Source: Escherichia phage VEc20. From it: a stretch of DNA of 64,000 bases. Shown here in pieces: positions 955 to 62,093 of the stretch. The stretch lies in sequence record MN022785.1; one strand, 5' to 3'. The notes below the pieces were generated by a model. That model did not search any database, was not told the DNA's origin, and saw only the letters and a program-made list of their open reading frames with translations. Position 1 is the first letter of the stretch. Every line of letters starts with the position of its first letter. The position numbers were made by a program, and so were the translations under genes.

Positions 955-1599
955 TTGATTATGGGGCTTCGGCCCCTATTCTCGAGGAAACAAGTGATTA
1001 TTTCTAAGTTTGTTACAATAAAACCAAGAAATCATTCAAAAATGTGGTCGACAATTCTGGGATATAAAGTATCATATCATGATACAGTATCTGTTCCAAT
1101 AGAATTAATGCCAAAGAATAGTAATAAAATAGTTGACGCTAAATGTGATTTGTGTGGTATTAAATTTAGTAGAAGCATTCAGCTTTTAAATAGAACACCC
1201 ACACATGCATGTAGAAAATGTAGCATTAAACAAGTTGCTATTAAAAATTCGGAAGTTCAATCTGGAATAAGTAGACCATGGCAAAGAGGTGATAAACATC
1301 CTCGATGGACTGGTAAAAGAAAAGAGTTTGCATTATATGCTAGTAGAGTTCATTCTATAACTAAGTCAGCTAAAATAAGAAAAATTTGGTCAAAATGGCC
1401 GAATGCTGATAAAATAGGAGTGTGTGGCGTAGAAGGTGCTTACCAACTCGATCATAAAGTATCTATCAAATATGGATTTGATAATTTAATTCCGCCGGAA
1501 ATTATAGCAAGCGTAAAAAATTTAGAAATAATCACTTGGGAATCTAACCGAGAAAAGTCAAAAAGAAATAGCGTAGATCTTTGGGATTTACTAGAATGA
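955..1599 (+). CDS. HNH-family endonuclease-like protein with Cys-rich zinc-ribbon; true start uncertain (track start is TTG; ATG candidates at 961 and 1042)
   Basis: CDLCG...CRKCS zinc-ribbon-like motif and C-terminal DHKVSIKYGFDN...N...N HNH-like motif; AT-rich codon usage unlike flanking late genes. Confidence 0.5.
   Translation: MIMGLRPLFSRKQVIISKFVTIKPRNHSKMWSTILGYKVSYHDTVSVPIELMPKNSNKIVDAKCDLCGIKFSRSIQLLNRTPTHACRKCSIKQVAIKNSEVQSGISRPWQRGDKHPRWTGKRKEFALYASRVHSITKSAKIRKIWSKWPNADKIGVCGVEGAYQLDHKVSIKYGFDNLIPPEIIASVKNLEIITWESNREKSKRNSVDLWDLLE
963..976 (+). terminator. GC-rich tetraloop hairpin GGGGC-TTCG-GCCCC immediately after gene 18 stop
   Basis: perfect 5-bp GC stem with UUCG loop seen in sequence. 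Confidence 0.4.
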
Positions 1600-5188: not shown

Positions 5189-5998
5189 ATGCTTAAAGAA
5201 CAACTGATTGCCGAAGCGCAGAAAATTGATGCTTCCGTTGCTCTTGATAGTATTTTCGAATCAGTTAATATTTCTCCGGAAGCAAAAGAAACTTTCGGCA
5301 CTGTATTCGAAGCTACCGTCAAGCAGCACGCCGTTAAATTAGCTGAATCTCATATCGCTAAAATTGCTGAAAAAGCAGAAGAAGAAGTAGAAAAAAATAA
5401 AGAAGAAGCAGAAGAAAAAGCTGAGAAGAAAATCGCTGAGCAAGCTTCTAAATTCCTTGACCATCTTGCAAAAGAATGGCTCACTGAAAATAAATTAGCA
5501 GTTGATAAAGGCATCAAAGCCGAACTGTTTGAATCCATGCTTGGTGGATTAAAAGAGCTCTTTGTTGAACACAACGTTGTTGTTCCAGAAGAATCAGTTG
5601 ATGTTGTAGCTGAAATGGAAGAAGAGCTGCAAGAACATAAAGAAGAATCAGCTCGTCTGTTCGAAGAACTCAATAAGCGTGACGCATATATCAATTATGT
5701 GCAGCGTGAAGTGGCATTGAGCGAAAGTACTAAAGATCTGACTGAGTCTCAAAAAGAAAAAGTCTCTGCTCTGGTCGAAGGTATGGATTATTCAGATGCA
5801 TTCTCAAGTAAATTGAGTGCAATCGTAGAAATGGTGAAGAAATCTAATAAAGATGAAAGCACTATTACTGAGAGTATAAATACTCCTGATACTGAAGCAG
5901 CCGGACTGAATTTCGTCACTGAAGCTGTAGAAGATAAAGCTGCACCTGGTGCAGAAGATATTGTAAGTGTATATGCGAAAGTCGCATCTCGTTTCTAA
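5189..5998 (+). CDS. 22: prohead core scaffold protein
   Basis: 269 aa, highly charged E/K-rich helical protein; synteny. Confidence 0.85.
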   Translation: MLKEQLIAEAQKIDASVALDSIFESVNISPEAKETFGTVFEATVKQHAVKLAESHIAKIAEKAEEEVEKNKEEAEEKAEKKIAEQASKFLDHLAKEWLTENKLAVDKGIKAELFESMLGGLKELFVEHNVVVPEESVDVVAEMEEELQEHKEESARLFEELNKRDAYINYVQREVALSESTKDLTESQKEKVSALVEGMDYSDAFSSKLSAIVEMVKKSNKDESTITESINTPDTEAAGLNFVTEAVEDKAAPGAEDIVSVYAKVASRF

Positions 5999-10565: not shown

Positions 10566-11984
10566 TTATGGATAGGTATAGATGATACCAGTTTCTAAAG
10601 CAGTTTTATGAATGATATATCCATTACGCGATTCTTGGACATCAACTTCTGGATAGTCTTTCATCATCTTCTGAAGAGTGTAACGATGCAGGTAGTATTT
10701 ACTATCTGGATCTTCAGTTTTCCAATCTTTACCTTCTTCAGTCATTTTTTGAATTTCATCCATAACCCACCAACCGCACCAGATGTAAGCTGAGCTACGG
10801 TGTGGAAGAGGATGAACATAAGGTAATTCACCTTCTGGTTCTGGAGCAACTTTATCAGTTACCTGAACTTGACCTTCTGCCGTAATAGTTTTGCTATCAT
10901 AATCAGCAGCAGTAACAGTTGCAGTAACTTCAATAGTTTGACTTCCAATAGATGAGGTATCAACAGTATATACGTTAGTTGACCCTTCCACAGGAGAAGA
11001 ATCTTTCTTCCATGAGTAAGTAATTTGTGCTGCTTCAGGTGCGCCATTAACATTAGCAGTAAATGTAGCCGAAGCATCTTGCTGAACATTAATAGAAGGA
11101 GGAGTCAATGTAACCTGTGGATTCATTGTCTTCTTATTAACTGTCAATGATACTTCATTGGAAGTAACTTCCTTTTCATTATAATTTTCTGCAGTTACTT
11201 GGGCTACGCATTTAATTCTTTTTACTCCACTTGTAGTTGGAGTATAGTTAAATGTAGAGTTAGTTTCTCCACCAACTTGTGAATCATCTACATACCACTG
11301 ATACGTAGCAGACGCTCCGTCAGGTTGAGAAGCTAATGCAGCAGTAAATTGAACCGGGGTTCCAATTACTCCAGCAGCAGGACTAGCAGGAGTTACTGCC
11401 AAGGTAGTTGTCTGTGTCTTTTTATTAACTGTCAATGATACTTCATTGGAAGTAACGCTCAGTGCATCATAATCTGTCGCAGTTACTTGAGCTACACACT
11501 TAATTTTTTTAACTCCGCTTGTAGTAGGAGTATAATTGAATGTAGCAGAAGTTGCTTCGCTCACAGGAGAACCGTCAACGTACCATTGATACGTAGCAGA
11601 TGCGCCCGATGGCTGTGAAGCTAAGGCAGCAGTAAATTCAACGGCTGTTCCGATTACTCCTTCTGGAGGACTATTAGGAGTTACAGCTAAGGTAGTTGTT
11701 TGTGTCTTATTTTGAACTGTGATAGTTGTACTAATTTCAGCTGTTTCAGCTTCAGAATCAGGAATAGTATTTGTTGCAACTACCTTAATAGTCTTTTGAC
11801 CAGCAGGTCCTTTTAATACATAATCAAAAGTTGCTGCTGATCCTTCTTGGGGAGCATTATCTACGCTCCAAGCATAGGTAATAGTTCCACCTCCAGTTTC
11901 ACCACTGGGTGTAGCAGTAAACTGCTTGGTTTCATCAATAACCCCTGTCGGTGTTTTAGGAGTTATATCAACTGTAAAAGTCAT
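10566..11984 (-). CDS. hoc: Hoc outer capsid decoration protein with four Ig-like domains plus C-terminal capsid-binding domain
   Basis: 472 aa; repeated Ig-like units with conserved W/Y/C pattern; two central units about 85% identical; synteny. Confidence 0.85.
   Translation of the reverse strand: MTFTVDITPKTPTGVIDETKQFTATPSGETGGGTITYAWSVDNAPQEGSAATFDYVLKGPAGQKTIKVVATNTIPDSEAETAEISTTITVQNKTQTTTLAVTPNSPPEGVIGTAVEFTAALASQPSGASATYQWYVDGSPVSEATSATFNYTPTTSGVKKIKCVAQVTATDYDALSVTSNEVSLTVNKKTQTTTLAVTPASPAAGVIGTPVQFTAALASQPDGASATYQWYVDDSQVGGETNSTFNYTPTTSGVKRIKCVAQVTAENYNEKEVTSNEVSLTVNKKTMNPQVTLTPPSINVQQDASATFTANVNGAPEAAQITYSWKKDSSPVEGSTNVYTVDTSSIGSQTIEVTATVTAADYDSKTITAEGQVQVTDKVAPEPEGELPYVHPLPHRSSAYIWCGWWVMDEIQKMTEEGKDWKTEDPDSKYYLHRYTLQKMMKDYPEVDVQESRNGYIIHKTALETGIIYTYP
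11120..11695 (-). repeat. tandem 288-bp duplication inside hoc (two adjacent Ig-domain coding units)
   Basis: near-identical 35-mer TTATTAACTGTCAATGATACTTCATTGGAAGTAAC at about 11134 and 11422; protein repeats QTTTLAVTP...VSLTVNKKT twice. Confidence 0.8.
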
Positions 11985-12723: not shown

Positions 12724-13341
12724 ATGTACCACTTTGTATATGAAACAACAAATCTAATAAATGGTAAAAAGTATATAGGAAAACACTCTACTGATGACTT
12801 GAATGATGGTTACCTTGGTTCCGGTAAGGCAATTCAGCAGGCTATAAAGAAATATGGTGAAAACAATTTCTCTAGAACAATACTAAAAGAGTTTAAAACT
12901 TCCGAAGAAGCGTACATGTATGAAGAAGAAATTATAACTCCTGAACTAATAAAAAGCAAAAATTATTATAATATGAAACCTGGTGGAATTGGTGGAATTG
13001 TTATGACTACAGAGGTTATAGCAAAGATGAAAGAATCTTCCGCTAAAAGATTTGAAAACTCACCAGGCACGGTATTAGGTAAAACTTGTTACACCAATGG
13101 AACTAAAAATATTTTTATTAAACCTGGAGAACTTGTTCCAGAAGGATTTGTAAAAGGGATGGTTCATCCTAATAGAAAGTCCAGAAAAGGATGTAAAGTC
13201 AAACCGACTACCACAGGAACTTTTTGGGTCAATAATGGCGCAATAAATAAATTAATACAACCAGACGGTATTATTCCCGACGGATTTATTAAAGGTCGTC
13301 TCATGAAAAGAGATTCTAAAGGCAAATTTAGTAAGGCATAA
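12724..13341 (+). CDS. segE: GIY-YIG homing endonuclease
   Basis: N-terminal HFVYETTN...KKYIGKH GIY-YIG motif; located between inh and uvsW as in T4. Confidence 0.75.
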   Translation: MYHFVYETTNLINGKKYIGKHSTDDLNDGYLGSGKAIQQAIKKYGENNFSRTILKEFKTSEEAYMYEEEIITPELIKSKNYYNMKPGGIGGIVMTTEVIAKMKESSAKRFENSPGTVLGKTCYTNGTKNIFIKPGELVPEGFVKGMVHPNRKSRKGCKVKPTTTGTFWVNNGAINKLIQPDGIIPDGFIKGRLMKRDSKGKFSKA

Positions 13342-33895: not shown

Positions 33896-34128
33896 AGTAC
33901 GCCATACACCCTTTGTGCTTCAACTAATCCATCAAAATCCAGTTTAAGATGCGATATTTGATCGCCATCACCTGGATTCACAATTACTAATACTGAACGA
34001 GGAGTTTCGGTAATAACACGAACCGATGTTTCAGGAAATCGTTCAGAAACCTTATTTACCAATTCCTGAGCAAATAGTTTAACTTTTTCTTGGAATTCTT
34101 TAACAGTAATTGGTTTTTCACTTAGCAT
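33892..34128 (-). CDS. hypothetical protein
   Basis: 78-aa ORF. Confidence 0.45.
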   Translation of the reverse strand: MLSEKPITVKEFQEKVKLFAQELVNKVSERFPETSVRVITETPRSVLVIVNPGDGDQISHLKLDFDGLVEAQRVYGVL

Positions 34129-34649
34129 GTTGATCCCAGCTCCTTACTTTCAACGTTTTTAACTAATTTGACAGAAACTAATTCAGCATCTTGAGTAATC
34201 ATTACCGGGCCTTCTTCATACTCTTCAAGATATTCTAGAGCTTTCTTTTTAGCTTCTTCCTTCGTATCAGTTTGAGCATAGATATAAAACATACAACCAG
34301 TAATACCTACTACTTTCCACTTAATTTCTTTATCAGTTTTAATTTCAAATTTACTGACAGAATCATCTTTTTGAACTTCTTCGAAAAAAGAATATTCTAA
34401 CATATAAGCAATTGAAAATAACGGGCTAACTTTATAAGATTCGCCCATTACATCAACAGCTTTATACCAACAATCATCAATTTCGCGTTTAATGCTAATA
34501 ACATTTTTCGCAGGATCTATTTTTACTTTAAATGAATTTTCCCCAATAAACTGGGCAATTCGTTTATTAGCCCCGCAAGTTTCATTAAAAATATCTTTAT
34601 ATCCAGCTTTAAAGCGATAAACCTTATCTTCTTCAAACCATTCGCTCAT
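34122..34649 (-). CDS. hypothetical protein
   Basis: 175-aa ORF. Confidence 0.5.
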   Translation of the reverse strand: MSEWFEEDKVYRFKAGYKDIFNETCGANKRIAQFIGENSFKVKIDPAKNVISIKREIDDCWYKAVDVMGESYKVSPLFSIAYMLEYSFFEEVQKDDSVSKFEIKTDKEIKWKVVGITGCMFYIYAQTDTKEEAKKKALEYLEEYEEGPVMITQDAELVSVKLVKNVESKELGSTC

Positions 34650-35380: not shown

Positions 35381-36605
<1,225 letters not shown>

Positions 36606-38037: not shown

Positions 38038-39625
<1,588 letters not shown>

Positions 39626-39633
39626 AATAAAAT

Positions 39634-39647
39634 GGGCCTTGCGGCCC
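39634..39647 (-). terminator. GC hairpin GGGCC-TTGC-GGCCC
   Basis: seen in sequence. Confidence 0.35.
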
Positions 39648-39652
39648 ACTCC

Positions 39653-40822
39653 TTAAAAATATTTTTTAAAACTCATCATAACTTTATCATCAACATCATT
39701 ATCAATCTGTGCTACAAGGTAAGATGACAGTTCTACTTCTTGCGGCGCGGATTGAACATTATCAGAATTAAGGTATTCACGAATCCAAGGATATGGATGT
39801 TTAACCGGAGCATCGGTAATTGGGCATGGAAGACCGCACTGTTTCATACGAGATACAGTTAAGTAATCAATAAAGCTCCACATGCTATTTGTATTTAATC
39901 CAGGAACATCACCATCTTTAAATAAATGAACTGCCCAATCTTTTTCTTGGCGGTTAACTTCCATGAAAATATCAACTGCTTCTTGTTCACACTCTTGAGC
40001 AATTTTAACCCATTCATCGCCATCAGTGCCAAGTTGAAGTTGACGAATAATATATTGAGTGCCTTTAAGGTGAAGCTGCTCATCACGTGCAATGAACTTC
40101 ATAATCTTGGCATTACCTTCCATGATTTCCATATTCTTGTGGAAGTTAAAGGTACATGCGAAAGATACATAAAAACGAATAGCTTCTAAGGCATTAATAA
40201 CGTGCAAACAGAGGTAAAGAGATTTCATTAGCTCTCGTTTGGCGTATTCAACGACTTTACCAAGTTCATCTTTGCGCCAACCTTCAGACAAAATTCCTTC
40301 GTATTCTTCTTTAGCGTTTTCCCAATAACGAGTTTTAATCAGAACATCATCATAATAACGTCCAATGGATTCAGCACGTTTCATAATAGCTTCATCTAGT
40401 ACAATCTCATCAAATACCTTTGACGGATCAGTATAAAGATTTCGCATGATATGTGTATATGAACGGCTGTGAATAGTTTCACTAAAAGTCCATGTAGCAA
40501 CCCATGTATCAAGGCTTGGGTCTGAAATTAATGACATAAGTACAGCAGACGGTGCACGACCCTGAATGCTATCCAAAAGTGATTGATACTTCAGGTTATT
40601 AGTAAAAATATTTTGCTGATACTGAGGAAGCTTATTAAACTGTGCAGCATCCATCATTAAGTTTACTTCTTCAGGACGCCAGAAAAATGATAAAGATTTC
40701 TCAATAAGTTCTTCAAATACTCTATGCCGTTGAATATCATATCGAGCTAAACCCAATCCAGAACCAAAAAACATCGGCTCAGTCAAAATATTAACAGGGG
40801 ATGTATTAAAAACTGTACTCAT
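39653..40822 (-). CDS. nrdB: ribonucleotide reductase small subunit, uninterrupted (no intron)
   Basis: continuous 389-codon ORF; resembles T4 NrdB. Confidence 0.9.
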   Translation of the reverse strand: MSTVFNTSPVNILTEPMFFGSGLGLARYDIQRHRVFEELIEKSLSFFWRPEEVNLMMDAAQFNKLPQYQQNIFTNNLKYQSLLDSIQGRAPSAVLMSLISDPSLDTWVATWTFSETIHSRSYTHIMRNLYTDPSKVFDEIVLDEAIMKRAESIGRYYDDVLIKTRYWENAKEEYEGILSEGWRKDELGKVVEYAKRELMKSLYLCLHVINALEAIRFYVSFACTFNFHKNMEIMEGNAKIMKFIARDEQLHLKGTQYIIRQLQLGTDGDEWVKIAQECEQEAVDIFMEVNRQEKDWAVHLFKDGDVPGLNTNSMWSFIDYLTVSRMKQCGLPCPITDAPVKHPYPWIREYLNSDNVQSAPQEVELSSYLVAQIDNDVDDKVMMSFKKYF

Positions 40823-41460
40823 TTAGAATCCTTAAATTTACATTTATCATAATGCCATCTTAGAGCATTGCCTTTATTAACTTTCTTGCCACAATGCGGA
40901 CAAGGCGGATACTCTATACTTTGCTTAGTTCTCAAAGAAATCAAATCGCGAGTTTCTTTAGTATGAGGAACATCTCTTGTCGGAGAGATTGTACCATACA
41001 TCGGATTAAGCACGCCGACTTTAGCAGCAGCTATATTCTTTTTAGCTTCTTCGGTTTTAGGTTTTCTCATGCGAGCTAAATGCTCTTTGGTAAATTTCCT
41101 TCCTTTAAGAGCTCTACTTATCTTTTCCCTGGTTTCTATAGAAACTTCACGTCCTATAGCAGCTTCAGATAAACGTCGTCTACCTAATTCGTATAGTTGA
41201 GAAGAAATTTTATATGAGCGATTTTTACCAGTCAAGCACATTAAACCAAAAGCTTTCTTTAATCCTGGGGTGTCATATATTTTGCATAAAAGCCAATGAG
41301 CTATAAAATGCTCTCTACCTGTTAATTCAACTAAATTTTCTTTATCATCAGAACCTCCCATGCATCTAGGGATTATATGATGAGTCTCTTTATATCCTAA
41401 TAAAGGTTCCCGAGCCTGAGCTCGGGAAATTAGGTCATTATAGATTTTTTGATAATTCAT
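40819..41460 (-). CDS. mobE: free-standing HNH homing endonuclease between nrdA and nrdB
   Basis: HNH motif HHIIPRCMGGSDDKENLVELTGREHFIAHW; repeated ETREKIS-like NUMOD-type motifs; position as T4 mobE. Confidence 0.7.
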   Translation of the reverse strand: MNYQKIYNDLISRAQAREPLLGYKETHHIIPRCMGGSDDKENLVELTGREHFIAHWLLCKIYDTPGLKKAFGLMCLTGKNRSYKISSQLYELGRRRLSEAAIGREVSIETREKISRALKGRKFTKEHLARMRKPKTEEAKKNIAAAKVGVLNPMYGTISPTRDVPHTKETRDLISLRTKQSIEYPPCPHCGKKVNKGNALRWHYDKCKFKDSK

Positions 41461-43724
41461 TACAATTTACACGCTGCACAATCTTCAGCTTTTGGAGTTT
41501 CTATTTCATAATCATCAGTACCAGAACCATCGCGGGTATTATGATAATAGAAATTTTTTCCGCCAAAATACCAAAAATACAAAAGGTCATCAATCATTAT
41601 TGACATTGGAACCTTGCCTTTAGGGAAGATTTGGGGGTCATAGTATGTATTCGCCGAAGCTGATTGACAAACCCATTTCAGCATAATAGCTACCTGCGTA
41701 AGATAAGGTTTATTACCTTTCTTAGCTAATTTCCATGTATAGTCGTAAAGGTCTATGTTATGCTCAATATTGGGCACGACCTGATTAAAGGAGCCCTCTT
41801 TTGATTCTTTAACAGAGACTGGTCCACGTGGAGGCTCGATACCGTTTGTACTGTTAGAAACTTGGGAAGATGACTCACATGGCATAAGTGCTGATAATGT
41901 GCTATTACGGATGCCAAAGAGCTTAAGGTCTTCCCGCAGCGACGACCAGTCACAAACGTATTTTGGAGCTGCGATTTGGTCAATCTTTTTATTGTACCAG
42001 TCGATAGGTAATTCGCCTCGAGACCAACGAGTGTCTGAATAATATTCGCAAGGTCCTTTTTCTTTGGCGAGCTTAATGGATGCTTTAATGAGTCCATACT
42101 GTAATCTCTCAAATAGTTCATGTGTTAAATCGTTAGCATCTTCATAAGAAGCAAAGTTACTTGCCAGCCAAGCTGCATAGTTAGTAACACCTACACCGAG
42201 GTTACGACGCTTTTTAGCTTTTTCTGCTTCAGGAACTGGATATCCTTGGTAATCCAAAAGATTATCAAGAGCACGAACTTGGACTTCTGCCAATTCATTA
42301 ATTTTATCTTGGTCTTGCCAATCAAAATTATCCAGTACGAATGCAGAAAGAGTACACAATCCAATTTCAGCATCAGGACTATTCACATCATTTGTTGGAA
42401 TAGCAATTTCACAGCACAAGTTACTCTGACGAATAGGTGCCTTTTCACGAATAAACGGAGTATAGTTATTCGTATTATCAATGAACTGCACATAAATCCT
42501 TGCTGTTCCTGAACGTTCAGTCATGAGCAATTCAAATAGTTCACGGGCTTTAATACGCTTTTTACGAATATTAGGGTCTTTTTCTGCGGCTTCGTATAAT
42601 TCACGGAAACGGTCTTGGTCTTTAAAATAAGAATAATAAAGCTCGCCACCCATTTCATGCGGACTGAACAAAGTAATGTAATCGTTCTTTCCGAATCGTT
42701 CCATCATCAAATCATTCAGCTGAACACCATAATCCATATGACGAATGCGGTTTTCTTCTACGCCTTTGTTATTTTTCAAAACGAGAAGATTTTCAACTTC
42801 CAAATGCCAAATAGGATAATAAGCAGTAGCAGCGCCGCCACGAATTCCACCCTGTGAACATGATTTAACTGCAGTCTGAAAATGTTTCCAAAAAGGAATA
42901 ACACCAGTATGACGTACTTCACCCATGTCAATCTTAGAACCTTCAGCACGAATCATACCAACGTTAATACCAATTCCAGCGCGTTTAGAGATATATTCAA
43001 CAATTGAAGCAGAAGCTTTATTAATTGACTTCAATGAATCACCAGCTTCAATAACAACACATGAACTAAACTGTCGAGTCGGAGTACGGCAACCAGCCAT
43101 AATAGGAGTTGGCAATGAAATCTGTCGAGTAGATACCGCTTCATAAAAACGAATAACATGTTTTAATCTATCAACAGGTTCATCTTGATGCAATGCCATT
43201 CCAATAGTCATAAATGCAAACTGTGGAGTTTCATAAATTTGACCAGTGGTTTTATCTTTAACTAGATATTTTTCTTTTAATTGCATCGCCCCGGAATAAG
43301 TAAATTCCATATCCCGCTCGTGCTTAATTTTTGATTCTAAAAATGTAATTTCTTCTGCTGAATATTTTGACAATAATTCAGGGTCGTATTTACCTTCATT
43401 TACACAGTAAGAAATATGGTCAATAAATGAACGTGGTTCATACTGCCCATAAACATGCTTACGAAGAGCAAACATTAAACAGCGTGCAGCTACATATTGA
43501 TAATCAGGCTCTTCAACCGAAATAGAATTCGCAGCGGCCTTAATGACAATAGTCTGAATATCATCAGTTGTCATTCCATCACGGAGATAAGATTTAATAT
43601 TTTCATATAATTCATAAGGATCTACTGATGTTCCCTCAGCTGCCCAAGATAAAACTTTAATAATTTTTTGCGGGTCAAAGCTCTGAGAAACACCACTACT
43701 TTTGATAACATTAATTAATTGCAT
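41460..43724 (-). CDS. nrdA: ribonucleotide reductase large subunit
   Basis: 754 aa; synteny and resemblance to T4 NrdA. Confidence 0.9.
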   Translation of the reverse strand: MQLINVIKSSGVSQSFDPQKIIKVLSWAAEGTSVDPYELYENIKSYLRDGMTTDDIQTIVIKAAANSISVEEPDYQYVAARCLMFALRKHVYGQYEPRSFIDHISYCVNEGKYDPELLSKYSAEEITFLESKIKHERDMEFTYSGAMQLKEKYLVKDKTTGQIYETPQFAFMTIGMALHQDEPVDRLKHVIRFYEAVSTRQISLPTPIMAGCRTPTRQFSSCVVIEAGDSLKSINKASASIVEYISKRAGIGINVGMIRAEGSKIDMGEVRHTGVIPFWKHFQTAVKSCSQGGIRGGAATAYYPIWHLEVENLLVLKNNKGVEENRIRHMDYGVQLNDLMMERFGKNDYITLFSPHEMGGELYYSYFKDQDRFRELYEAAEKDPNIRKKRIKARELFELLMTERSGTARIYVQFIDNTNNYTPFIREKAPIRQSNLCCEIAIPTNDVNSPDAEIGLCTLSAFVLDNFDWQDQDKINELAEVQVRALDNLLDYQGYPVPEAEKAKKRRNLGVGVTNYAAWLASNFASYEDANDLTHELFERLQYGLIKASIKLAKEKGPCEYYSDTRWSRGELPIDWYNKKIDQIAAPKYVCDWSSLREDLKLFGIRNSTLSALMPCESSSQVSNSTNGIEPPRGPVSVKESKEGSFNQVVPNIEHNIDLYDYTWKLAKKGNKPYLTQVAIMLKWVCQSASANTYYDPQIFPKGKVPMSIMIDDLLYFWYFGGKNFYYHNTRDGSGTDDYEIETPKAEDCAACKL

Positions 43725-44041
43725 AAGTCCTCAACTTGAAAATCGTCTTTAAACAATCGGTTAACTATATGAGCTATTATATCACCATGACACGGCTTTG
43801 GTTTACATGTGCATCCTAGCCTCATTCCGCGTAAAGGCTCTAAATGTGCTTTAGTTATTTCTCCGGATTTAATTCGACGTATAAAATCTTTTTTGAATAA
43901 TTCAATGGCAGCCTCCCGGCTGCCAGCATCTTTACCGACGTAATTTCCCCAAAATGTACCGCGGTGAATATTAATATCAAAGTCGGATTTATATTTATTC
44001 ACTACCTGGCATAGACGGCCCGCGCGACGATAATTCGTCAT
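43715..44041 (-). CDS. hypothetical protein with Cys/His motif
   Basis: 108 aa; [13 protein letters not shown] motif. Confidence 0.5.
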
Positions 44042-44270
44042 ATTGTTTTTCCGTTAAAACAGTAATATCATAGTAACAATCAGAAGAAGTTTTAACTGTA
44101 GAAATTTTATTATCAAAATACTCACGAGTCATTTTATGAGTATAATATTTTTTACCATAAATGATAATAGGCTGATTTGGTCCTGGAACTTCTAACTCGC
44201 TTGGGTTAGGAAGTGTAAAAAGAATGGCACCAGAAGTATCTTTAAATCGTAAAATCATATATCCTCTCAA
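43995..44270 (-). CDS. hypothetical protein
   Basis: 91-aa ORF. Confidence 0.45.
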
Positions 44271-44281
44271 TTAAATTAAAA

Positions 44282-44593
44282 TTATACCGCCATTTTTCCT
44301 TTCAAGACACCGTGGGATTGATAATCTTTGAGAACGAAATCTTTAGGCCTAAGTTTAAGAACATATTTTAATTGTTCTTTAGTAGAAAGATATCGGAATT
44401 TATAAGGTAGACCACTTATTACCAGCTCACAAAGCTCTTTAGGTTCACGCCTCAAAATTTCTTTACATTGTTCTACGTGATTCATATAGATATGAGTATT
44501 ACCACCAGAAAATATCAAATCTCCTGGAATAAGATTACACATCTTAGCTACAATATGCGTCAAGGCAGCGTACGAGGCAATGTTGAACGGTAG
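44282..44593 (-). CDS. td: thymidylate synthase, exon 2
   Basis: in-frame continuation LPFNIASYA... after intron; exon1+exon2 = 286 codons. Confidence 0.9.
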   Translation of the reverse strand, partial: LPFNIASYAALTHIVAKMCNLIPGDLIFSGGNTHIYMNHVEQCKEILRREPKELCELVISGLPYKFRYLSTKEQLKYVLKLRPKDFVLKDYQSHGVLKGKMAV

Positions 44594-45609
44594 CATTATG
44601 TTCAGATAAGGTCGTTAATCTTATCCCGGAATTATATCCAGCTGCATGTCACCATGCAGAGCAGACTATATCTCCAACTTGTTAAAGCAAGTTGTCTATC
44701 GTTTCGAGTCACTTGACCCTACTCCCTAAAGGGATAGTCGTTAGGCATTTATGTAGAACCAATTCCACTTATCAGATTTTACACGGTAAGTAACTAATCC
44801 TGATGAAATTTCAAAATGTCTAGCCGCATCGGCTGCACATTCAAAAATAATCCCATCGCATGAAATCTTTTTGATGTTAGCTGGCTTTTTGCCTTTCATC
44901 TTTTCAGATAGTTTAGTTTTAGTTTTTTCTGAATGTTTGTGATTAAAGAACGGGTTATTTTCACCTGAACGTTTTCGGCACTTTCCACAAGTATCGGCCG
45001 AAGATGGTATGCGAACACCGCATTTACAAAACTTGTGGTTTTCTGGATTCCATCGGCCATTTTTACTTCCGTGTTTACCATAAAGAGCTTTCCGACCATC
45101 AGGACCAAGCTTAAGCATCTTAGCTTTAACAGTTTCAGCTCGTTTCTTAGCAATTTCTTCTTTTAATGGATGATTTGAAAGCACATCGCCAAAAGACGCA
45201 TCAGCAATATTATATCCATTAATTTTAGAATTTAGCTCTTTAATCCAAAAATTTTCTCGTTCAATAATCAAATCTTTCTCATATGGAATTTCTTCCAGTA
45301 CAGAGCATTCAAAAACATTACCATGTTTATTAAAAGACCTTTGAAATTTTATAGAAGAGTGAACACCGTTTTCAAGGTCTTTAAAATGTCTCTTCCATCT
45401 TTTCTCAAAATCTTTAGCACTTCCAACATACACTTTACCGTTTAAAGTGTTTTTAATCTGATAAATTCCGCTTTTCATAAACACCTCTTTTTATATAGAA
45501 GTATTTATTAAAGGGTAGTCCTACAATTTAGCACGGGATTGTCTACTAGAGAGGTCCCCCGTTTAGATAGATTACAAGTATAAGTCACCTTATACCTAGG
45601 CCTAAATTA
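44594..45609 (-). mobile_element. td group I self-splicing intron (1016 nt) carrying I-TevI
   Basis: 5' intron sequence TAATTTAGGCCTAGGTATAAGGTGACTTATACTTGTAATCTATCTAAACGGGG... matches T4 td intron from memory; ends in G before exon 2; length 1016 as in T4. Confidence 0.9.
44741..45478 (-). CDS. I-TevI: intron-encoded GIY-YIG homing endonuclease
   Basis: MKSGIYQIKNTLNGKVYVGSAKDFEKRWKRHF... matches I-TevI from memory; 245 aa. Confidence 0.9.
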   Translation of the reverse strand: MKSGIYQIKNTLNGKVYVGSAKDFEKRWKRHFKDLENGVHSSIKFQRSFNKHGNVFECSVLEEIPYEKDLIIERENFWIKELNSKINGYNIADASFGDVLSNHPLKEEIAKKRAETVKAKMLKLGPDGRKALYGKHGSKNGRWNPENHKFCKCGVRIPSSADTCGKCRKRSGENNPFFNHKHSEKTKTKLSEKMKGKKPANIKKISCDGIIFECAADAARHFEISSGLVTYRVKSDKWNWFYINA

Positions 45610-46158
45610 ACCCAAGAAAACATCTACACTGCGTTGATACCACTGCAAATCCAAATAGCCATTACGCACATTAAACTGATAGAACATATGACAAGGCGGT
45701 AATGCCATATATTTAAGTTCAGCTGGATTCCACGCAGAAACAATTTGTCGCCTATCATTCGGCAGTTTTTTAATACGATCAATAACTTCTACAATTTGGT
45801 CTACACCGCCAAAATCACGCCACTGTTTTCCATAAATTGGACCAAGTTCACCGCTATGGTATCCTAAATCTTTTGCTTGATTTTCGTAATTTTCATCCCA
45901 GACTGTTTTGCCTTGAATTAATGAATCATGCTGAATTAATCGTAAATCATTGACATTTGTGCTTCCTGATAAAAACCAAAGTAGCTCAGCAATGCATGCA
46001 TTCCAGGCGAGCTTTTTAGTTGTTACTGCAGGAAAACCTTTACTTAAATCCCAGCGTAATTTAGTACCGAACAAAGCAATTGTTCCTGTGCCTGTTCGAT
46101 CATCGGTTTCATAGCCATTTTCAAAAATGTCTTTAATTAAATCTTGGTATTGTTTCAT
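45610..46158 (-). CDS. td: thymidylate synthase, exon 1
   Basis: 183 codons ending ...VDVFLG at the 5' splice site. Confidence 0.9.
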
Positions 46159-46203: not shown

Positions 46204-46563
46204 TCAATACGGTTTAGCATCAAATTTTCTTTCGATTTCAGGAGTGAAATATAATTCTTTACCGCGTTTAGAAAAGCGACCAATAATATGATAATTATTC
46301 TCATCAAACGTGATATTACCAATATCCATAGCTTTCAACCAAATATCGATATTTCTATCCAGCTTTATGTCAAAATTCCAATACGGAGAACTATTACCGA
46401 AAATACTGCAAGCGGATTCAGTGAAACAACTGCTATAAATCTTGTCTTTAGGAACTACTAATTGATAGACACCTTTAATAAACTGAGGACCTTGCCATTT
46501 TGGCTGTTTTGCGTCTTTTTCTAATAGAATAGGATAATAATTAAAGTTCATATTTTCCGCCAC
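46204..46563 (-). CDS. hypothetical protein inserted between frd and td
   Basis: 119-aa ORF occupying a junction that I recall as a direct frd/td overlap in T4. Confidence 0.5.
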   Translation of the reverse strand: MAENMNFNYYPILLEKDAKQPKWQGPQFIKGVYQLVVPKDKIYSSCFTESACSIFGNSSPYWNFDIKLDRNIDIWLKAMDIGNITFDENNYHIIGRFSKRGKELYFTPEIERKFDAKPY

Positions 46564-46571
46564 GCGTTATT

Positions 46572-47398
<827 letters not shown>

Positions 47399-49477: not shown

Positions 49478-49560
49478 TTTATTTCCTTTTTAATTTAATT
49501 TAATTAACAGTTGGTGCTATGACACTTTACCTCATAGCTGGCATAATTCGCAATACTCTG
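49478..49560 (-). promoter_or_regulatory. gene 32 mRNA leader / translational autoregulatory operator
   Basis: minus strand reads ...AATTAAATTAAATTAAAAAGGAAATAAAATG, the A/U-rich UUAAA-repeat leader known for T4 gene 32. Confidence 0.55.
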
Positions 49561-50164
49561 GGTCTTCGAGAGGTATCCAACCTAAGTTGAAATACTTTAC
49601 CATCGATTTAGCAGTTGTATCAGTTATATTTATATTACCTTTAACTCTTCGCCATCCAGGAGTTTTACCGTACAGATTAGAGGATAATAATAACACATAA
49701 TTCTCGTAAGCAATATGAGATAATTTCCAAGACTCTATATTAGCTCGTGATGTTTTCCAAGGTCTAAAATCGTCACGGTTCATATAATTAGCCAATCTCA
49801 TATGCTCTCTAACTTCCGGGTCTTTGGCTGGATGAGTTTCACCACTCACACCAAATCCACCACCAGCATATACCAGATTAAAATAGTCTGGATTATCTCT
49901 TGCATTTACTTCAAGTTGGTATTTTCGTTCTGCTTCAATAACATCCAAGTCATCATCAATTTGAATTATTTTAACGCTCGGTTTTTGAAGCATTAGCGCA
50001 TTCAAAAATCTTTTTTGTTTACATGAGCTCCAGTATTCCTTTCCGGAAGAGTCATATATTATTCCGTTCTCAAATGAGCAATTTAATTTACTACCGATAT
50101 AATAGTATGGCGGAGTCTTATTTTTGACACGGTCTTCAAATGTAAACCAATATACTATATTCAT
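49532..50164 (-). CDS. segG: GIY-YIG homing endonuclease-like protein between 32 and 59
   Basis: N-terminal NIVYWFTF...YYYIGSK GIY-YIG motif; position as T4 segG. Confidence 0.6.
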   Translation of the reverse strand: MNIVYWFTFEDRVKNKTPPYYYIGSKLNCSFENGIIYDSSGKEYWSSCKQKRFLNALMLQKPSVKIIQIDDDLDVIEAERKYQLEVNARDNPDYFNLVYAGGGFGVSGETHPAKDPEVREHMRLANYMNRDDFRPWKTSRANIESWKLSHIAYENYVLLLSSNLYGKTPGWRRVKGNINITDTTAKSMVKYFNLGWIPLEDPEYCELCQL

Positions 50165-58146: not shown

Positions 58147-61100
58147 ATGGCTACTTTAAAACAAATACAATTTAAAAGAAGCAAAACTGCAGGTCAACGT
58201 CCTGCTGCTTCAGTATTAGCCGAAGGTGAATTGGCTATAAACTTAAAAGATAAAACAATTTTCACAAAAGATGACTTAGGTAGTGTTATAGAATTAGGTT
58301 TAAAATATGGAGGAACAATTGATGGTTCTTTAACTGTTAATGGAAACATAATTGGAAATTTAACAGGTAACGCTGCAACTGCAACGAAATTAAAAACAGC
58401 ACGAAAAATTAATGGTATATCCTTTGATGGGTCAAAAGATATCACGCTAACTCCATCTGACATAAATGTCAATAGCACAACGTTTATAAAAAATAACGGC
58501 GAATTACCTGTTGATGCTAATTTAGATGAGTATGGGCCTGTTGAAGAATATCTTGGAGTTTGGTCGAAAGCAACTTCAACCAACGCTCAACCAGCAAATA
58601 AATTTCCAGAAGAAAATGCTGTAGGTGTTCTAGAAGTATTTGTGGCCGGTCAATTTGCTGGTACTCAGAGATATACAACTAGATACGGAAATGTTTATAT
58701 TCGTTCCTTGACTGCTACATGGAACGGAGTAAACGGTCCGTGGAGTGCGTGGCGAAATATTCAATCTGGTACTCGTCCACTGTCAACAACGATTGATCTT
58801 AATGATCTAGGAGGCGCTGAACACCTTGGTTTGTGGCGAAATAGTTCAAATTCCATTGCTACCTTTGACAGAAATTTCCCAGAAGAAGGATCGTCAGCTC
58901 AAGGACTTTTAGAAGTATATGAAGGTGGAAACTATTCTCGCACACAGAGATATACGACCAGATTTGGTGTTGTTTATACTCGCTGTCTTGCTGCTGCATG
59001 GGATGCATCTGCACCTAAATGGGGACCGTGGCAACAAGTCGGTAATGTCACACCGGCGACTTTCTATGACGGAGACCTGAATGATTTTAAAGCTCCTGGG
59101 TTATATAACATTTTAGGCACTGATGCCGTTATTAACTGTCCTACCGGTGAAGGTTTGCCGACTGTTATTGTTGGTTTGCTGGAAGTTAAACAGCGTGCTT
59201 CTGGCGGTGCTATTTTCCAAAAATTTACTACTGCCGGAACGGGTGCAACTACTCGCGATCGTATTTTTGAGCGTGCATATACTGGTGGTGTGTGGGGTGC
59301 ATGGAACGAAGTATATACATCTTATTCCCTGCCAATTACTTTGGGTATGGGTGGTATTAAATCTAACTTAGCAGAGTTAGACTGGCAAACATTTGATTTT
59401 GTTCCTGGTAGTATGTTTAGCGTTCCTTTGAACAAAATAAAGAACATGCCAGCTAATATGGATTGGGGTACGATTGACGGAAACTTAATTATGTTTTCTG
59501 TTGGTCCTAGCGAGCACACCAGCACAGGACGTACTGTTCAGGTTTGGCGTGGTACTGTATCCCAGACAAACTACCGTTATTTTGTCGTTCGTGTATTCGG
59601 TAATTCAGGAAATAGAACTTGCACAGTTCGTCGCGTTGTTCTTGAAGATGGTCGCCACAAATGGACAGCGCAACAAGATTTTAATGGCGCAGTTAACTTC
59701 GGTGCTCCTACCAATTTTAACTCTACTGTTAACCTTAATAACACTACCACTTTTAAAACAGAAGTTAAATTTCGCTCATTGAATGCATTCCGTATGTATG
59801 GCGGAAAATTTGGTACAATTTTCCGTAATGATGGAGAGAGTCTTTATATTCTTTCCACCGACGAAGATGATCAAGATGGAAACTTTAATAAAAATAGACC
59901 TTTCCGCTATCAATTAAAAACTGGCGATGTTACTTTGGGTGGCACTAGTGGTGCTAACGTTTTAAAATTAAAACGTGATTCTCTCACCGCATTTTTTGGT
60001 GGTGATATTAACATGAAAGGCTTGATGACTTTTGACGCCGGACGTTTAGGATCACGAGATTATTTTAAATTTAACCATTGGGGTGATAGTAATAATGCGC
60101 GCGATAACATTATTCAGTTAGAAGACAGCAAAGGCGTTCATTTTTCCACTGAACGTACTTTAGCGACAGGTGCAATTAAAACTAAATTTTTTGGTGAAAC
60201 CTTCACTGACGGTACATTATACCTAAATCAGATGAATAATAGCTCTGAACGATTCTCTATCAACAATTGGGGAAATTCAGAAGTTGGACGCGCGGCAATC
60301 TTAGAAATCAGCGATTCACAAGGTTATCACTTCTATACGGAACGTAGAACAGATGACAGTTTGGTGTTTGATATATCCGGTGCGTTGACCGTGCGTGGAC
60401 CTAACGGAATAACCGTCAAAAACTCAACTGGTGCACGCCATATCTGGTTTAGAGATGATAGCGAAACAGAAAAGGCTGTTATTTGGGTGACCGATGATGG
60501 TATTTTACATATACGAAATAATCGTGGGGGTTCATTTAGTCATCACTTCCAAGGTGCAATGATTAAAGCGGGAGAGCGTGTTCCTTATGCCGGAGATCAA
60601 GGGCTTATTCGCGGTGAAGTTTCTGGTGGTGCATGGGTAGACTGGCGAGATCGTCCGGCTGGATTGTTGGTAGACTGTCAGGACTCACGAAGTCAAGCAT
60701 ATAACATTTGGAAAGCTACTCATTGGGGCGAACAGCACCTTGCGGCGATGGGTGTTCATGCTGGCGGTGGTAATCCTCATGTTGTATTGCATGTGGGTGG
60801 GAGTGATTATGCATTTGCATCTAACGGTGATTTTACTGCTGGTGCTGCTGTATATTGTAACGACGTTTATATTCGTTCTGACCGTCGTCTGAAAAATAAT
60901 GTTGAAGACTACGAAGAGAATGCGGTGGATAAGGTAAATAAACTCAAAGTTAAAACCTATGATAAAGTTAAATCTCTTTCTGACCGCGAAGTTATCGGCC
61001 ATGAGATTGGTATTATCGCACAGGATTTGCAAGAAGTATTACCGGAAGCTGTTAGCACTTCTAGTGTCGGATCTCAGGATAACCCAGAAGAAATTTTAAC

Positions 61101-61230
61101 AATTTCTAACTCTGCTGTGAACGCGCTTTTAATTAAGGCTATCCAAGAAATGAGCGAAGAAATTAAAGAATTAAAAACGCCTTTCTTCACTAAAATTGCT
61201 CGCAAAATTAGTAATTATTTTAAATTCTAA
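58147..61230 (+). CDS. 37: long tail fibre distal subunit with C-terminal intramolecular chaperone domain
   Basis: 1027 aa; last 117 aa carry S-D-R-R-L-K...[15 protein letters not shown]...LLIKAIQEM signature. Confidence 0.9.
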
Positions 61231-61236
61231 CAACAA

Positions 61237-61249
61237 GGGGCTTTGCCCC
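61237..61249 (+). terminator. GC hairpin GGGGC-TTTG-CCCC between genes 37 and 38
   Basis: seen in sequence. Confidence 0.4.
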
Positions 61250-61262
61250 TTTGGAGAAAATT

Positions 61263-62063
61263 ATGGCAGTAGTTGGAGTTCCTGGCTGGATTGGAAGTTC
61301 AGCCGTAAATGAAACGGGTCAGCGCTGGATGAGTCAAGCAGCTGGTCAATTAAGATTGGGTGTTCCTTGCTGGATGAGTCAATTTGCAGGTCGCTCAAGA
61401 GAAATTATTCATACACTTGGAGCAGACCATAACTTCAATGGTCAATGGTTCCGAGATAGATGTTTTGAGGCCGGTAGTGCACCTATAGTGTTTAATATTA
61501 CAGGTGATTTAGTATCATATTCTAAAGATGTTCCTTTATTCTTCATGTACGGGGATACGCCTAATGAATATGTTGTTCTTAATATTCATGGTGGTGTTCA
61601 TATGTGGGGTCGTGGTGGTAATGGTGGATACACTCACTCGGGAGGCGACGGTAACGGTACACAAGGTGGTCATGTTATTCAAAATGATATCGGTGGACGG
61701 CTTCGTATTTGGAACTACGGTGTTATAGCTGCTGGCGGTGGCGGCGGTGGTGGTATTGCATATCGTCCACACTCAGGGGCAAACTGGCAAGATATCGGTG
61801 GCGGTGGTGGTCGACCTTTCGGTGGCGCTGGCGGTGGCGGTTATTCCGGTGGTGCTGCTTCGTATGAAGGTCCGGGTGGTGGTTATGACTATGGTAACGC
61901 ACACTCCGGCGCTGGTGGTAATGCTGGTGCTGCTGGTCAGAATGCATGGTCTGACGGCGGTAAAGTTCTTAAAGTTGGTGTTGGTGGTGCGTCTGGTCAT
62001 GCAGTGTTTGGATCTTCTCCAACTTGGGGTGTTGTTGGAACAATTTACGGACCAAGAGTATAA
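61263..62063 (+). CDS. 38: gp38 tail-fibre adhesin with glycine-rich motifs (T2/T6 type)
   Basis: [30 protein letters not shown]-terminus; central poly-Gly islands separated by short variable segments; GGAG before ATG. Confidence 0.8.
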
Positions 62064-62093
62064 TGTGAATAAATACCCTTAAAAGGAGGGTCT

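Follow-up and report, generated by a model that had tools for sequence, protein, structure and literature searches.

A 64,000-nucleotide (nt) stretch of Escherichia phage VEc20 (sequence record MN022785.1; hereafter the window) contains, at positions 39653–46158, a region that is very probably best explained as a T4-like nucleotide-metabolism cluster holding two selfish elements in the configuration of phage T6, one of them a TuIa-type intron gained by homing. The two elements are a group I intron in the thymidylate synthase gene td, which encloses the gene of the homing endonuclease I-TevI, and the free-standing HNH endonuclease gene mobE, between nrdA and nrdB. The window derives from a Tequatrovirus (T4-like) genome, the region being the gene cluster of nrdB, mobE, nrdA, nrdA.1, nrdA.2, td and frd, with its genes on the minus strand. 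The elements, their sites and their combination were already known; what is added here is the identity of the intron allele, the fine-scale footprint of homing in the td exons, and the form of mobE.

The td intron and its exon footprint

The td intron was matched by 259 records in the phage collection, 198 of them nearly full length, and 21 records were at least 99% identical to it. Identity was 90% to the intron of T4, 99.9% to TuIa (AY262157) and 100% to the introns of NRG-P0074 and BEU50 (0 mismatches over 1016 nt in both cases); by sequence, the allele is of the TuIa type and not that of T4. NRG-P0074, BEU50 and SQ17 are classified as Mosigvirus. While the TuIa-type introns, theirs included, share 99.9–100% identity with that of the window over the full 1016 nt, the td exons of these three phages are Mosigvirus-like and only about 77% identical to those of the window, the sequence in common being the 60–80 nt or so that adjoin the intron. 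Td exon positions 1–515 of the window, by comparison, matched the intronless td gene of T2 at 513/515 positions.

The borders between the two exon types were located with 232 informative sites, the td exon positions that differ between T2 and NRG-P0074, numbered from the intron insertion site. From −534 to −34 the window was T2-type at all 118 of 118 sites, from −22 to +36 it was NRG-P0074-type at 17/19, and from +48 to +252 it was T2-type once more, at 82/83. Such an alternation of T2-type, donor-type and T2-type sequence argues for homing, because double-strand-break repair from an intron-containing donor yields patches of this kind; judged by these polymorphisms, homing brought the intron into a T2-like td gene, the donor having had Mosigvirus-like exons, and left a short donor-type exon patch on either side of it. 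The reported I-TevI cuts fall 23 and 25 nt upstream of where the intron inserts (PMC2988022), and since the enzyme's cleavage motif CAACG lies at −27 to −23, the upstream switch between T2-type and donor-type sequence falls within about 11 nt of the expected break.

Two further observations concern the exons. The exon sequence adjoining the intron in the window is CTACCGTTCAACA. The last 81 nt of td (44282–44362, minus strand) are RB3/ESh25-like (78–79/81 matches), with only 65/81 matches to T2 and T4; this 3′ end changes the C-terminal residues to KDYQSHGVLKGKMAV and represents a further recombination joint inside td.

The element has the same insertion site and splice junctions (...TTGGGT/TAATTT... 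and ...CATAATG/CTACCG...) as in T4 (NC_000866), the canonical td site, with exon 1 ending in U and the 3′ end of the intron being G, and the joined exons translate into a thymidylate synthase of 286 amino acids (aa). Position and length of the I-TevI open reading frame (ORF) are also those of T4; it starts with the ATG at 45478, the GTG two codons upstream in the mechanical ORF list being wrong. The protein matched the GIY-YIG domain (PF01541, 1.4e-16), the zinc finger (PF22635, 1.8e-17) and the DNA-binding domain (PF20987, 1.9e-31) of Pfam, and scored 182.9 bits against TIGR01453 (cut-off 56). It is identical to T4 I-TevI at 217/245 residues, and because the codon differences comprise 48 synonymous and 28 non-synonymous changes, the gene appears to be under purifying selection. 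Aligned to the T4 and T6 proteins, the 28 substitutions all spare the GIY-YIG motif, R27, E75, N90 and the four zinc-finger cysteines.

The non-coding ribozyme parts of the intron were 93–99% identical to T4, and the I-TevI ORF about 88% identical at the DNA level to those of T4, T6 and RB3. In the 147-nt 3′ part, which was 98.6% identical to the T4 ribozyme, the two substitutions, as read from the alignment, replace a U.G by a U-A pair and a G.U by an A-U pair within evident hairpins. The internal guide sequence differs slightly from that of T4 (GCCUAGG, compared with GCCUGAG) and, read by eye, pairs with the exon 1 end CUUGGGU through seven standard or G.U pairs. Upstream of I-TevI, the window has in common with T4, apart from small variants, the sequence TAATAAATA, which resembles a late promoter, and a hairpin in which the ribosome-binding site and the start codon are paired; the hairpin folds at −13.0 kcal/mol (z −4.95 against shuffled sequences). 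A regulatory role for promoter and hairpin has been described, and the TuIa variants in the hairpin were already pointed out there (PMC2988022). The operator region also shows small changes from T4: the operator-like sequence at 45483–45500 (minus strand) is CTACCCTTTAATAAATAC in the allele of the window, by eye nearer to the T4-type homing-site sequence CTACCGTTTAATA than is T4's own operator TTGCCCTTTAATA.

By analogy with T4, the intron RNA would splice itself out so that the 286-aa enzyme is made, and I-TevI, late in infection, would cut the intronless td genes of co-infecting phages 23–25 nt upstream of the insertion site, repair of the break then copying the intron into the recipient.

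mobE and the intronless nrdB

The gene at the nrdA/nrdB junction matched the Pfam domains HNH (PF01844, 23.1 bits, cut-off 21.4) and NUMOD3 (34.5 bits) as well as the PHROG homing-endonuclease family phrog_655 (1.7e-66), and was 97.5% identical in DNA to mobE of T6 and 98.9% identical to that of Lutter. Comparison with the T6 gene annotated MobE (AY262134), at 97.5% identity, was the ground for rejecting an identity as another HNH gene, for example hef. The start codon of mobE and the stop codon of nrdA overlap in TAATGA, an arrangement known from T4 (PMC2988022), and at the other end the mobE stop and the nrdB start share ATGA. Inside its 5′ end lies a hairpin resembling an intrinsic terminator, with a fold energy of −21.3 kcal/mol (z −4.83); a terminator in this position has been reported from all mobE-carrying phages (PMC2790892).

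T4 mobE (Wilson and Edgell 2009, PMC2790892) has the same location, TAATGA overlap and internal terminator hairpin. Residues 1–55 hold the HNH motif and hardly differ between the window, T6, T4 and RB3. Beyond residue 55 the sequences diverge: MobE of the window and of T6 is of one 213-aa form, whereas T4 is annotated with a 141-aa MobE and a separate 83-aa NrdB.1, and the 243-aa MobE of RB3 has an unrelated C-terminal half. The T4 nrdB.1 sequence constitutes the C-terminal 83 residues of MobE in the window, including a CPHC...H...C motif, so that a single ORF in the window and in T6 ends in what is annotated as a separate gene in T4; the mobE region of T4 has the look of a longer gene that was disrupted or rearranged. 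Window positions 40819–41070 (minus strand) correspond to positions 5717–5968 (nrdB.1) of the T4 comparison sequence.

In crosses of T4 and T2, MobE-dependent nicks were mapped to nt 122–126 (codon 42) of T2 nrdB, at the 5′ end of the gene and not at the intron site (PMC2790892); the question of where the HNH protein has its target is therefore partly answered in the literature. Codon 42 in the window is AAA (Lys), and Lys is among the forms reported for mobE-carrying phages (PMC2790892). Over nrdB nt 1–180 the window matched phages with the same mobE allele at 178/180 (T6, a48) and 179/180 (Lutter) positions, but the mobE-less phages T2 and ESh25 at only 145–146/180. On these counts, the mobE allele and the nrdB 5′ end travel together. 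If the T4 system is a guide, mobE would be co-transcribed with nrdA, damped by the internal terminator, and would favour its own inheritance by nicking the nrdB 5′ end in phages that lack it.

The nrdB gene aligned without gaps across the site that holds a 598-nt intron in T4 and a 1091-nt intron in RB3. A cryptic intron was ruled out by continuous alignment with T4, RB3, T6, T2 and others. The target gene and the insertion-site sequence are present as in T4 and RB3; the element itself is not in the window, and since nrdB has no intron, I-TevIII is absent as well. Nucleotides 451–630 of nrdB (40193–40372, minus strand), which follow the MobE nick region and precede the I-TevIII insertion site, were strikingly variable, with 58–74% identity and indels, compared with 90–100% identity elsewhere in nrdB; at least five allele types could be distinguished, represented by T4/T6, RB3/a48, T2, ESh25 and window/Lutter.

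Arrangement, relatives and competing explanations

On the minus strand the genes are ordered rnlA, denA, nrdB, mobE, nrdA, nrdA.1, nrdA.2, td exon 2, the intron with I-TevI, td exon 1, an extra ORF and frd. A query of 8.2 kb around the td–nrdB region returned 1001 phage records, the best being the Tequatroviruses a48, KarlGJung, Lutter and T6 at 95–96% identity, and a spliced td query returned 719 records, with continuous coverage in a single place in 500. T4 (NC_000866) is collinear with the window from gene 18 to past gene 38, apart from a handful of insertions and replacements. A chance origin is excluded because the region is 95–100% identical to sequenced phages.

In gene order and element content the cluster equals that of T6 (MH550421, AY262134), where td likewise contains the intron with an I-TevI gene of 245 aa, nrdB has no intron, mobE encodes 213 aa and the extra ORF lies between td and frd. 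T6 differs in its td intron allele (101 mismatches over 1016 nt) and in the middle of nrdB, identity over the whole of that gene being 90.8%. The combination of td intron with I-TevI, intronless nrdB and mobE is shared by a48, KarlGJung and Lutter; T4 and RB3 depart from it in having the nrdB intron, and T2 and ESh25 have neither intron and no mobE. The arrangement is therefore that of T6 and several other sequenced Tequatroviruses, ordinary and already known. Unequal intron and endonuclease content among T-even phages is established knowledge, described since the 1980s; the variable occurrence of the nrdB intron is given as the topic of papers of 1987 and 1989 cited in PMC2988022.

Against this background, the original prediction, which had been made from the letters of the window alone, described a mosaic content relative to T4, and did so correctly. 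Its 1016-nt group I intron in td was recovered at the same coordinates (44594–45609) with junctions as in T4; its intact I-TevI ORF proved to have 245 aa, all three Pfam domains and the key residues; and the 286-codon thymidylate synthase was obtained from the joined exons. The continuous 389-codon nrdB, without the T4 intron and I-TevIII, was borne out by the gapless alignment over the insertion site, and a search for a cryptic nrdB intron by alignment to T4, T2, T6, RB3 and others found none. The free-standing mobE-like HNH gene it had placed at the nrdA/nrdB junction is upheld by the HNH and NUMOD3 matches and by the 97.5% identity to T6 mobE.

Several points weigh against the explanation of the cluster given here. 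An Rfam scan of the whole window at the gathering threshold gave no match; a permissive local search found the group I family RF00028 at 44642–44872 with 36.2 bits (E 3.9e-7), below the gathering score of 50, although a ribozyme interrupted by a 738-nt ORF is expected to score low. Two sites within the donor-type patch, −4 and +3, agree with neither T2 nor NRG-P0074, suggesting that the true donor was not exactly NRG-P0074 or that mutations followed the transfer. The T6-type MobE allele departs from T4 MobE after residue 55, and no in vitro demonstration of endonuclease activity exists for MobE, not even for that of T4 (PMC2790892). Splicing, cleavage by I-TevI and nicking by MobE are themselves carried over from T4 by analogy.

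Vertical inheritance of the intron with td, its difference from T4 being ordinary drift and no recent transfer having taken place, would suit the canonical insertion site and the closeness of the ribozyme parts to T4. It is nonetheless most improbable, as the intron shows 0/1016 mismatches to Mosigvirus introns despite exons of about 77% identity, the exons of the window are 99.6% identical to those of intronless T2, and the donor-type patch flanks the intron exactly. The exact combination of exons and intron seen in the window was absent from the phage collection, where the td precursor was matched at 95.5% at best, and this could point to an assembly chimera of Tequatrovirus and Mosigvirus reads from one sample. 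That the switch points lie no more than about 35–50 nt from the intron on both sides, the upstream one adjoining the I-TevI motif, fits homing and not mis-assembly; moreover, the Tequatroviruses sutha and TB004 carry the TuIa-type intron with other tract ends (longer upstream, and downstream only to +17), indicating separate events or later recombinants. A chimera, too, is hardly credible.

It is distinctly unlikely that mobE is no longer an active homing endonuclease gene and persists as a decaying passenger, or is kept for nrdB expression signals. A middle promoter that serves nrdB and lies in the 3′ part of T4 mobE does select against deletion and, as noted, activity could not be shown in vitro (PMC2790892); of the 142 phage-collection records matching mobE, only 49 did so at full length. 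Yet the 213-aa ORF is intact, with an HNH region almost identical to that on which in vivo nicking by T4 MobE depends (PMC2790892), and the allele and the 5′ end of nrdB vary together, as an active element would bring about. For nrdB, the choice is between an intron lost by precise deletion and one never acquired. In the life cycle accepted for homing elements introns are also lost (PMC2988022), and the stretch just upstream of the site, nt 451–630, is unusually variable among phages; beside the site, however, there was no remnant and no exon polymorphism of T4 or RB3 type, and absence is the common state (the RB3 nrdB intron was matched by 129 phage-collection records, 85 nearly full length, or about one third of 388 intron-containing strains). 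Past possession of the intron therefore seems rather unlikely.

The gain of a TuIa-type intron by homing does not change the understanding of phage introns or homing endonucleases, the elements being 97–100% identical to public sequences. It does provide a clean natural example of an intron that is identical across two phage genera and sits in a gene otherwise like that of an intronless relative. The copied patch has its borders beside the endonuclease cut site, which helps to estimate how far co-conversion reaches when exons have diverged by about 23%. For annotation, several records with the same intron split td into two thymidylate synthase genes, and label the endonuclease genes generically or as hypothetical.

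Endonuclease gene inventory and neighbouring features

Table 1. Position, strand and supporting evidence of features in the window.
Feature	Position	Strand	Evidence or remark
td exon 1, codons 1–183 of thymidylate synthase, 549 nt	45610–46158	−	3′ end ...TTGGGT as in T4
td group I intron, 1016 nt, TuIa-type allele	44594–45609	−	Boundaries same as T4 td intron
td exon 2, codons 184–286 and stop, 312 nt	44282–44593	−	Begins CTACCG right after terminal G of the intron
I-TevI gene, 245 aa, GIY-YIG homing endonuclease, within td intron	44741–45478	−	Pfam and TIGR01453
I-TevI late-promoter-like sequence TAATAAATA and hairpin pairing with ribosome-binding site and start codon	45477–45513	−	Conserved with T4
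Upstream donor-type co-conversion tract, −22 to −1 (could reach −33)	45610–45631	−	Informative-site analysis, T2 versus NRG-P0074
Downstream donor-type co-conversion tract, +1 to +36 (could reach +47)	44558–44593	−	Informative-site analysis, T2 versus NRG-P0074
I-TevI cleavage motif CAACG, just outside upstream tract	45632–45636	−	
nrdA, 754 aa	41460–43724	−	DNA 96–98.5% identical to nrdA of T4, T6 and Lutter
mobE, T6-type allele, 213 aa, free-standing HNH endonuclease gene	40819–41460	−	Pfam, PHROG, DNA identity
Intrinsic-terminator-like hairpin inside mobE 5′ end	41407–41428	−	9-bp stem, 6 G-C pairs, tail CCTTTATTAG
nrdB, continuous 389-codon ORF, no intron	39653–40822	−	Pfam Ribonuc_red_sm 7.7e-37
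Polymorphic stretch around mapped MobE nick sites, nrdB nt 114–131	40692–40709	−	Alignment; nick sites from PMC2790892
Empty nrdB intron/I-TevIII insertion site, after nrdB nt 667	40155–40156	−	Gapless alignment
denA, further GIY-YIG nuclease gene, not homing	39215–39649	−	
ORF19.1-like gene between genes 18 and 19	994–1599	+	
segE, GIY-YIG free-standing endonuclease gene	12724–13341	+	99.2% identical to T4 segE; Pfam SegE_GIY-YIG 6.6e-09
segG, free-standing endonuclease gene between genes 59 and 32	49532–50164	−	99.5% identical to T4 segG over 592 nt; phrog_7504 2.5e-133

Features with coordinates are collected in Table 1. Five endonuclease-like genes had been counted in the original prediction, and four of these (segE, mobE, I-TevI and segG) stood; the fifth, between genes 18 and 19, resembles HNH nucleases at the level of the fold only, and denA had been left out of the count. 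The 18/19 gene, which is ORF19.1-like, had no Pfam or NCBIfam match at E ≤ 0.01 and a weak PHROG homing-endonuclease match (8e-4), although D153, H154, N176 and N185 were invariant across 38 homologues of its protein, and distant homologues occupy this 18/19 junction in phages of Shewanella, Serratia and Pectobacterium as well. To read it as an HNH gene is plausible, though weakly supported and not established.

We would also suggest, tentatively, that the td intron reached this phage in an independent and very recent transfer between genera, with unusually short tracts (about 22–33 nt upstream and 36–47 nt downstream), and that the ORF19.1-like genes make up an unannotated HNH-like family at the 18/19 junction of many T4-like phages. 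If both held, the former would be a case of natural inter-genus homing through strongly diverged exons, and the latter would extend the free-standing endonucleases of T4-like phages by a new family.

Comparison with T4 revealed no segD sequence at the gene 23/24 gap, which measures 83 nt. Three other insertions relative to T4 (34122–34649, 36285–36605 and 47153–47398) had no Pfam match and were not counted as endonuclease genes, having matched only PHROG families of unknown function. The first of them (minus strand), a 519-nt insertion between cd.2 and cd.3, encodes a 175-aa protein of the unknown-function family phrog_3710. The extra ORF between td and frd (46204–46563, minus strand; 119 aa; phrog_1928, function unknown) is also present in T2, T6 and RB3, while in T4 td and frd overlap instead. 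Distal gene 37 and gene 38 (58302–62068, plus strand) are without a T4 match, which is the usual tail-fibre mosaicism, and the ORF at the hoc position (10566–11984, minus strand) encodes 472 aa, compared with 376 aa in T4.

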